Assembly (NCBI RefSeq): GCF_003334765.1
Contig: NZ_QOWT01000106.1
Source of the DNA: Escherichia coli
GTDB taxonomy: Bacteria > Pseudomonadota > Gammaproteobacteria > Enterobacterales > Enterobacteriaceae
DNA: 691 bases
Reading direction: 5' to 3' (one strand)
This document shows positions 1-691 of the stretch, piece by piece. Under the pieces are notes generated by a model, which searched no databases, was not told the origin of the DNA, and saw nothing but the letters and a program-made list of their open reading frames with translations. Made by a program: the position numbers and the translations under genes. Every line of letters starts with the position of its first letter. Positions within the stretch are counted from its first letter, which is position 1.

Positions 1-691
1 ACACGCGCCTGGTTACCCATACACAGGGAACAGCCAGGGATCTCGATACGCGCACCACTCTTACCGAAGACGCTGTAGTAGCCTTCTTCGGTCAACTGTG
101 CGGCGTCCATACGGGTTGGCGGTGCCACCCACAGGCGGGTCGGCAACTGACCTTTATGCGCATCCAGCAGTTTACCCGCAGCACGGAAGTGACCGATGTT
201 GGTCATGCAGGAACCGATAAACACTTCGTCGATCTTCTCGCCCTGTACCGCAGACAGCGGACGCGCGTCATCCGGGTCGTTCGGAGCACAGAGGATTGGC
301 TCTTTGATATCCGCCAGATCGATGTCGATCACTGCCGCGTATTCCGCATCTGCATCGGCTTCCAGCAGCTCAGGATTCGCCAGCCATTTTTCCATGCCCT
401 GAATACGGCGTTCCAGGGTACGATGATCGCCGTAACCTTCCGCGATCATCCACTTCAGCAGGACGATGTTGGAGTTCAGGTATTCGATGATCGGTTCTTT
501 GTTCAGCTTGATGGTACAACCGGCAGCAGAACGCTCGGCGGACGCATCGGTCAGCTCAAAGGCCTGCTCAACTTTCAGATCCGGCAGACCTTCAATTTCC
601 AGGATGCGGCCAGAGAAGATGTTTTTCTTGCCTTTCTTCTCAACGGTCAGCAGACCTTGTTTGATCGCATACAGCGGAATAGCGTGTACCA
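1..691 (-). CDS. acnB: Aconitate hydratase B (aconitase B; bifunctional aconitate hydratase 2 / 2-methylisocitrate dehydratase), internal fragment truncated at both ends by the window
   Basis: Manual translation of the reverse complement gives an uninterrupted frame of 229 complete codons (codon n at plus-strand coordinates 690-3n to 692-3n; first complete codon 687..689, last 3..5; partial codons at 690..691 and 1..2). The peptide starts [231 protein letters not shown] recognise this as the catalytic region of enterobacterial AcnB, including the aconitase-family Fe-S ligand motifs SCMTN and [11 protein letters not shown]. Codon usage is typical of a well-expressed E. coli gene (CTG Leu, CGT/CGC Arg, GGT/GGC Gly, AAA Lys, GAA Glu). 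Identification is from recall, not a search. Confidence 0.95.
21..32 (-). other. acnB: Codons for predicted [4Fe-4S] cluster ligand cysteine pair (C-S-L-C in motif [13 protein letters not shown]), within acnB
   Basis: Plus-strand aca at 30..32 and aca at 21..23 are minus-strand tgt (Cys) codons separated by Ser-Leu, in the conserved aconitase motif [12 protein letters not shown]. They lie 59 and 62 residues downstream of the first ligand Cys, matching the family C-x58-C-x2-C spacing. By recollection these are Cys769 and Cys772 of AcnB. Confidence 0.75.
207..209 (-). other. acnB: Codon for predicted [4Fe-4S] cluster ligand cysteine (first of three; in motif [11 protein letters not shown]), within acnB
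   Basis: Plus-strand gca at 207..209 is minus-strand tgc (Cys), in frame within the motif [13 protein letters not shown]. The aconitase family uses one Cys in an S-C-M/T-T-N context plus a downstream C-x2-C pair as cluster ligands. If my recollection of AcnB numbering is right this is Cys710. Confidence 0.75.

Follow-up and report, generated by a model that had tools for sequence, protein, structure and literature searches.

AcnB takes part in the citric-acid and methylcitrate cycles and also senses iron and oxidative stress. Aconitases carry a cubane [4Fe-4S] cluster in which three cysteine thiolates hold three of the irons. The fourth iron has no protein ligand and binds the substrate hydroxyl and carboxyl groups together with water, and it acts as the Lewis acid when citrate, cis-aconitate and isocitrate are dehydrated and rehydrated. 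This mechanism is carried over to AcnB from mitochondrial aconitase. AcnB also hydrates 2-methyl-cis-aconitate to 2-methylisocitrate and is named bifunctional aconitate hydratase 2/2-methylisocitrate dehydratase. Oxidants or iron shortage strip the labile iron or the entire cluster to leave an inactive enzyme, and the apo-protein binds mRNA. The cluster states of AcnB and mRNA binding by the apo-enzyme have been summarized (PMC8987015). Residues C710, C769 and C772 of the AcnB structure 1L5J (Williams et al. 2002) are among the diagnostic residues listed for AcnB (PMC13147460), and C769, within a tryptic peptide, has been named as a [4Fe-4S] binding site (PMC10507379).

Six-frame translation of the whole 691-nt window (the entire stretch of DNA that was analysed) was used to locate its coding frame. 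The minus-strand frame from 689 to 3 contains 229 codons and zero stops, and stops are present in each of the remaining five frames. A phmmer search against PDB sequences aligned the translation to residues 550-778 of 1L5J chain A without gaps and with 228 of 229 residues identical (E = 2e-151). The window (1..691, minus strand) is matched to gene nt 1646-2336 of acnB, and codons 689..3 correspond to AcnB residues 550-778. The window contains neither end of the gene and covers 229 of 865 codons (26% of the gene). Annotated acnB matches the whole 691 nt at 95% identity or more in 5426 of 5426 complete E. coli genomes by megablast, and the cysteine pattern described below is therefore not a chance occurrence.

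Profile searches placed the fragment in the same family. NCBIfam TIGR00117 scored 460 bits across model positions 540-767 and NF006690 scored 433 bits across model positions 541-769. The whole-protein cutoffs of these models (1287 and 782 bits, respectively) are out of reach for a 229-residue fragment, and the closest full-length relative scores 1716 bits with TIGR00117 and 1575 bits with NF006690. The next NCBIfam family reaches 88 bits, and the window scores far higher with the AcnB model (460 bits) than with those of homoaconitase and isopropylmalate isomerase large subunits (56-88 bits). The Pfam Aconitase domain (PF00330) was detected at fragment residues 148-228 (E = 2.5e-10) and 22-147 (E = 4.3e-4), and TIGR01340 matched with E = 6.6e-06. 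The closest full-length relatives carry the Pfam domains Aconitase_B_N and Aconitase_2_N (HEAT-like and swivel), which lie in residues 1-549 outside the window. We conclude with high confidence that the window is an internal part of acnB on the minus strand, and that it encodes residues 550-778 with Cys710, Cys769 and Cys772 intact at the superfamily ligand positions.

Searches for other features gave little. The repeat search of the window returned one 23-nt imperfect direct pair and found no inverted repeats. An Rfam match to the PA5194 thermometer, a Pseudomonas RNA, at 250-339 on the minus strand lies inside the coding sequence and scores 24.8 bits against a gathering score of 60 (E = 0.012); it was rejected as most likely due to chance. 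The matches from the plasmid search were set aside as well, being only mislabelled chromosomes or chromids that carry acnB.

The three candidate cluster ligands were located in the open frame. The Cys710 codon (TGC, 207..209, minus strand) specifies fragment residue 161 within the motif GSCMTN and would provide the first [4Fe-4S] ligand. The Cys769 codon (TGT, 30..32, minus strand; fragment residue 220) and the Cys772 codon (TGT, 21..23, minus strand; fragment residue 223) lie together in the motif GCSLCMGN and would provide the second and third ligands. The three residues have the spacing C-x58-C-x2-C. Regular expressions for PROSITE-style aconitase patterns matched at both places, with the signature 1 region (residues 702-719, around Cys710) at 180..233 and the signature 2 region (residues 761-774, around Cys769 and Cys772) at 15..56, both on the minus strand. 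Two more cysteines in the fragment, at window positions 516-518 and 288-290, are unconnected to the ligand claim.

These observations bear on an earlier note made on this DNA, which had placed cluster-ligand codons at 207..209, 30..32 and 21..23 of the minus strand in SCMTN and CSLCMGN motifs with C-x58-C-x2-C spacing. Direct reading of the window gave TGC, TGT and TGT at these positions and reproduced the motifs and spacing exactly, and the assignment of the fragment to AcnB agrees with the TIGR00117 score, the PF00330 match and the identity to 1L5J. The note had proposed alignment to AcnB or another aconitase as a check, and in such alignments the cysteines coincide with C710, C769 and C772 of 1L5J and with ligand positions of the mitochondrial enzyme. 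In the latter case the phmmer match is weak (E = 0.028), and the TIGR01340 profile gives a better one. The phmmer alignment pairs the fragment cysteines with residues at index 357, 420 and 423 of chain 1B0K, the pig mitochondrial aconitase of 753 residues; these are the classical three ligands, C358, C421 and C424 when numbered as in 5ACN and 7ACN (754 residues). The fragment cysteines also align with cysteines of homoaconitase and isopropylmalate isomerase large subunits (E = 1e-16 to 1e-17, phmmer against PDB). The numbering 710/769/772, which the note had given, is correct by the gap-free 1L5J alignment and by PMC13147460, with C769 found also in PMC10507379.

By alignment, Cys710, Cys769 and Cys772 correspond to the three cysteines that ligate the cluster in the aconitase superfamily. 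From the near-identity of the fragment to a crystallised enzyme, their thiolates are predicted to bind three irons of the [4Fe-4S] cluster and the intact protein to have aconitase activity. Ligation of the aconitase cluster by three cysteines is a textbook feature that was already known and is not a discovery, as the earlier note rightly said.

Conservation of the three sites was examined in relatives retrieved by an HMMER scan of 1.84 billion cluster representatives, and the best 150 matches were analysed. Among these 150 matches, cysteine is present at site 710 in 93 of the 102 relatives covering it, at site 769 in 55 of 61 and at site 772 in 54 of 56. All three cysteines occur in 43 of the 53 relatives that span all three sites, and the motifs GSCMTN and GCSLCMGNQ are nearly invariant in the relatives with the complete set. 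The exceptions include four full-length AcnB-like proteins that do not have the first two cysteines, and most of the others look like broken metagenomic gene calls. The four Cys-less proteins (P0060, P0066, P0079 and P0119) are 805-838 amino acids long and 34-40% identical to the fragment, and they may represent a cluster-less AcnB-like subfamily. They score below the NF006690 cutoff, and the ligand cysteines therefore discriminate within the broader family.

Substitution patterns were compared between the window and other acnB copies. The window has eight synonymous changes and one non-synonymous change relative to K-12 acnB (pN/pS = 0.039), with eight of the nine differences at the third codon position of the minus frame, and pN/pS was 0 to 0.06 in comparisons with three other acnB copies. 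We infer that purifying selection acts on the stretch covered by the window and that this stretch has not decayed.

The window is matched at 99% or better in only 23 complete E. coli genomes, and all 23 have two acnB places. For 20 of these genomes, comparison of coordinates placed the best match about 7-10 kb from an accessory set of GntR, amidohydrolase and MFS genes. The best match in strain 746 is to a second acnB located 25 nt downstream of citG. The island operon of this strain (locus L001, 2067-12953) consists of a divergent GntR regulator, an amidohydrolase, an MFS transporter, a duplicated citCDEFXG citrate-lyase operon and acnB. Remnants of ISEc38, IS66 and IS100 flank this block, which lies near a malX island marker, and the same block is found in other contexts in loci L003, L005 and L009-L017. 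The three upstream genes (GntR, amidohydrolase, MFS) are present in 33 of 5426 complete E. coli genomes (~0.6%).

The citCDEFXG genes of the island are 97.8% identical to the K-12 core cit operon and lack citT, and its acnB is 96.8% identical to K-12 acnB, with homology that begins at the start codon after a new GGAG ribosome-binding site. The cit and acnB genes both match core copies, and acnB does so from the start codon; therefore, the island operon unites two core blocks that are otherwise unlinked. The amidohydrolase belongs to Pfam Amidohydro_2. Its best solved relatives are 2FFI, a putative 2-pyrone-4,6-dicarboxylate hydrolase (E = 1e-67), and LigI 4D8L (E = 4.5e-24), and it has a weak match to 4-sulfomuconolactone hydrolase. 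Judged from its sequence, the amidohydrolase is lactonase-like because of the matches to 2FFI, LigI and 4-sulfomuconolactone hydrolase. The island may be a mobile module for tricarboxylate or lactone catabolism. No papers on an accessory citrate-lyase/aconitase island were found in the literature searched.

A variant of the island was observed in strain 10 (locus L003, 18290-20887), where it is divergent and adjoins a LacI/sugar-ABC/kinase cluster. The acnB of this variant encodes Arg638, and 18 sites distinguish it from the window. Its identity to the strain 746 island acnB is 97.2%, which makes it about as distant from that copy as from core acnB, and the island acnB is therefore itself polymorphic or repeatedly converted.

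Alignment of the window with island and core copies separates it into two segments. The upstream segment (240..691, minus strand; gene nt 1646-2097; 452 nt) has the island-type haplotype. Among the matches listed, the second acnB copy of 20 genomes matches it at 100% and that of three more at 99.8%, and the best single-copy genome reaches 98.7%. The downstream segment (1..239, minus strand; gene nt 2098-2336; 239 nt) contains all three cysteine codons and has the core-type haplotype. Its identity to core acnB is 100% in K-12 and in many other strains, and 1366 genomes match it at 99% or better. The window has core alleles at positions 150, 146 and 99 (gene nt 2187, 2191 and 2238), and every island copy examined differs there. 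Twelve sites split the strain 746 island and K-12 alleles, and the window has the island allele at the nine upstream sites and the core allele at the three downstream sites. The probability of such a one-ended 9/3 partition is P ~0.009.

The upstream segment also contains an amino-acid marker for the island allele. Codon 638 (423..425, minus strand) is CAT for histidine in the window and CGT for arginine in K-12 and 1L5J, with the A located at gene nt 1913. The change of Arg638 to His is the sole amino-acid difference between the window and crystallised AcnB. A 33-mer centred on His638 occurs in 24 of 5426 complete genomes, once in each. Its position was checkable in 21 of the 24, and in these it lies in the island copy or in one of two truncated remnants and never in core acnB.

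We lean tentatively, and short of calling it probable, toward the window being a natural recombinant in which a gene-conversion tract joins the island acnB to the resident core acnB of the same cell, with the junction between 150 and 240. The 9/3 arrangement of alleles along the gene argues for this reading, as does complete identity of the 452 upstream nt to the island type and of the 239 downstream nt to the core type, and two acnB copies that are 97% identical within one genome make gene conversion possible. Against it, the hybrid haplotype is absent from the 5426 complete genomes and from the fetched island loci (L001, L005 and L009-L017), and the 171-nt haplotype that spans the junction has zero exact matches in metagenome contigs and in species-representative genome contigs. 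A search for the exact 229-aa product of the window found no record. The wider proposal is that the window has its origin in a rare accessory acnB instead of the housekeeping gene, or has recombined with such a copy, that the mosaic reflects gene conversion between paralogues, and that the island encodes an undescribed mobile pathway for import of a tricarboxylate or its lactone, isomerisation by AcnB and cleavage of the citrate so formed. We offer this proposal as a working possibility with rather less than even confidence.

A second account is that the mosaic arose as an artefact of assembly, in which a short contig combined reads of the two acnB copies, themselves 97% identical, or reads of two strains. 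The 691-nt window lies wholly within a gene that is duplicated in island-bearing strains, where short-read assemblers would be expected to break or mis-join, and the absence of the hybrid haplotype from all the collections searched fits this account as well. We regard an artefact as a plausible origin for the mosaic but a somewhat doubtful one.

It is unlikely that the window is the ordinary acnB of an unsampled Escherichia lineage that has the ancestral island allele, with the three island-specific bases acquired later. In its favour, the island acnB differs from E. coli core acnB by only about 3% along its full length, and its donor is therefore taken to be a close relative. However, the His638 33-mer is in no checkable core acnB among the 5426 genomes, and the three differences are clustered within 52 nt. 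In addition, 2187C is common to two divergent island variants, which suggests that this base is old in the island lineage.

The fragment could also be a dead acnB, a truncated or inactivated remnant in which the intact cysteine codons are left over, and such remnants do exist. In E. coli MLI106K3 and GmM066 only the final 744 nt of the island acnB (codons 619-865) are left, abutting an IS110 fragment next to kps capsule genes (L006 8960-9703 and L007 8960-9703), and both remnants still encode C710, C769 and C772. The window, however, runs 209 nt upstream of the truncation point of the remnants with a perfect match to acnB, and over that region the sequence preceding the remnants fails to match acnB (48 of 260 matches). 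There are zero stops in the 229 codons of the window, and its differences from other acnB copies are nearly all synonymous. A dead remnant is thus very improbable. The remnants nevertheless limit what the codons can tell. Intact cysteine codons are no proof of a working enzyme because truncated acnB remnants keep all three. The earlier note had reasoned that intact codons make the gene look functional rather than decayed; this is sound for the sequenced stretch, with its open frame and pN/pS of ~0.04, but does not carry over to the whole gene, of which the window covers 229 of 865 codons. The other catalytic and substrate-binding residues listed for AcnB all lie beyond the window, at 179-183, 191 (R), 244-246, 414 (Q), 444 (H), 480 (H), 497-499, 791 (R) and 796 (R) (PMC13147460). 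Where a short fragment has intact catalytic codons, these should not be taken as proof of a live gene.

Almost no weight is given to the reading that the real feature is a plus-strand gene and the minus frame incidental. The ORF listing does contain a plus-strand ORF of 68 codons (196-402) that overlaps the first cysteine codon, but the minus frame is open over the entire window and near-identical to a crystallised protein, the polymorphism sits at its third positions, and the plus-strand product is a low-complexity Ser/Ala-rich antisense translation with no independent conservation seen apart from acnB. The plus-strand ORFs were rejected as antisense artefacts, with stops in all frames but the minus frame 689..3.

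A result of modest value is that the window leads to an accessory citrate-lyase/aconitase island of E. coli that has drawn little notice. The relation of the window to described proteins can be stated at several distances. The nearest is the island acnB, exemplified by strain 746 (WP_001596151.1), whose protein is identical over the part that the window encodes, including His638. Three synonymous changes separate the two, and at each of these sites (150, 146 and 99) the window carries the core base. E. coli AcnB (1L5J) has C710, C769 and C772, the GSCMTN and GCSLCMGN motifs and the same spacing as the window, and differs by the single substitution of Arg638 to His, which is apart from the listed catalytic residues. 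The Cys-less AcnB-like proteins share the architecture and full length of AcnB, but they have L/H, S/N, A/T and S/H at the first two ligand sites where the window keeps cysteine. Their scores of 630-697 bits fall under the NF006690 cutoff of 782, and the window is not of that kind.

More distant members of the superfamily retain the ligands in other protein frameworks. The large subunits of homoaconitase and isopropylmalate isomerase (4KP2, 4NQY and 4KP1) belong to the same superfamily, and the cysteines of their FIGSCTN and PGCGPCLG or PSCSACMG motifs align with those of the window; unlike AcnB, these are two-subunit enzymes that act on other substrates. In pig mitochondrial aconitase (5ACN, 7ACN and 1B0K) the overall similarity is weak (E = 0.028), and 62 residues separate the first and second cysteines compared to 58 in the window. 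AcnB has an N-terminal domain 4 and a HEAT-like domain, a domain order unlike that of the mitochondrial enzyme. The three cysteines of the pig enzyme nonetheless match those of AcnB one-to-one and in equal order in the fold, and the pig enzyme and the window have G-S-C-x-T-N and C-x2-C-[IM]-G contexts in common.
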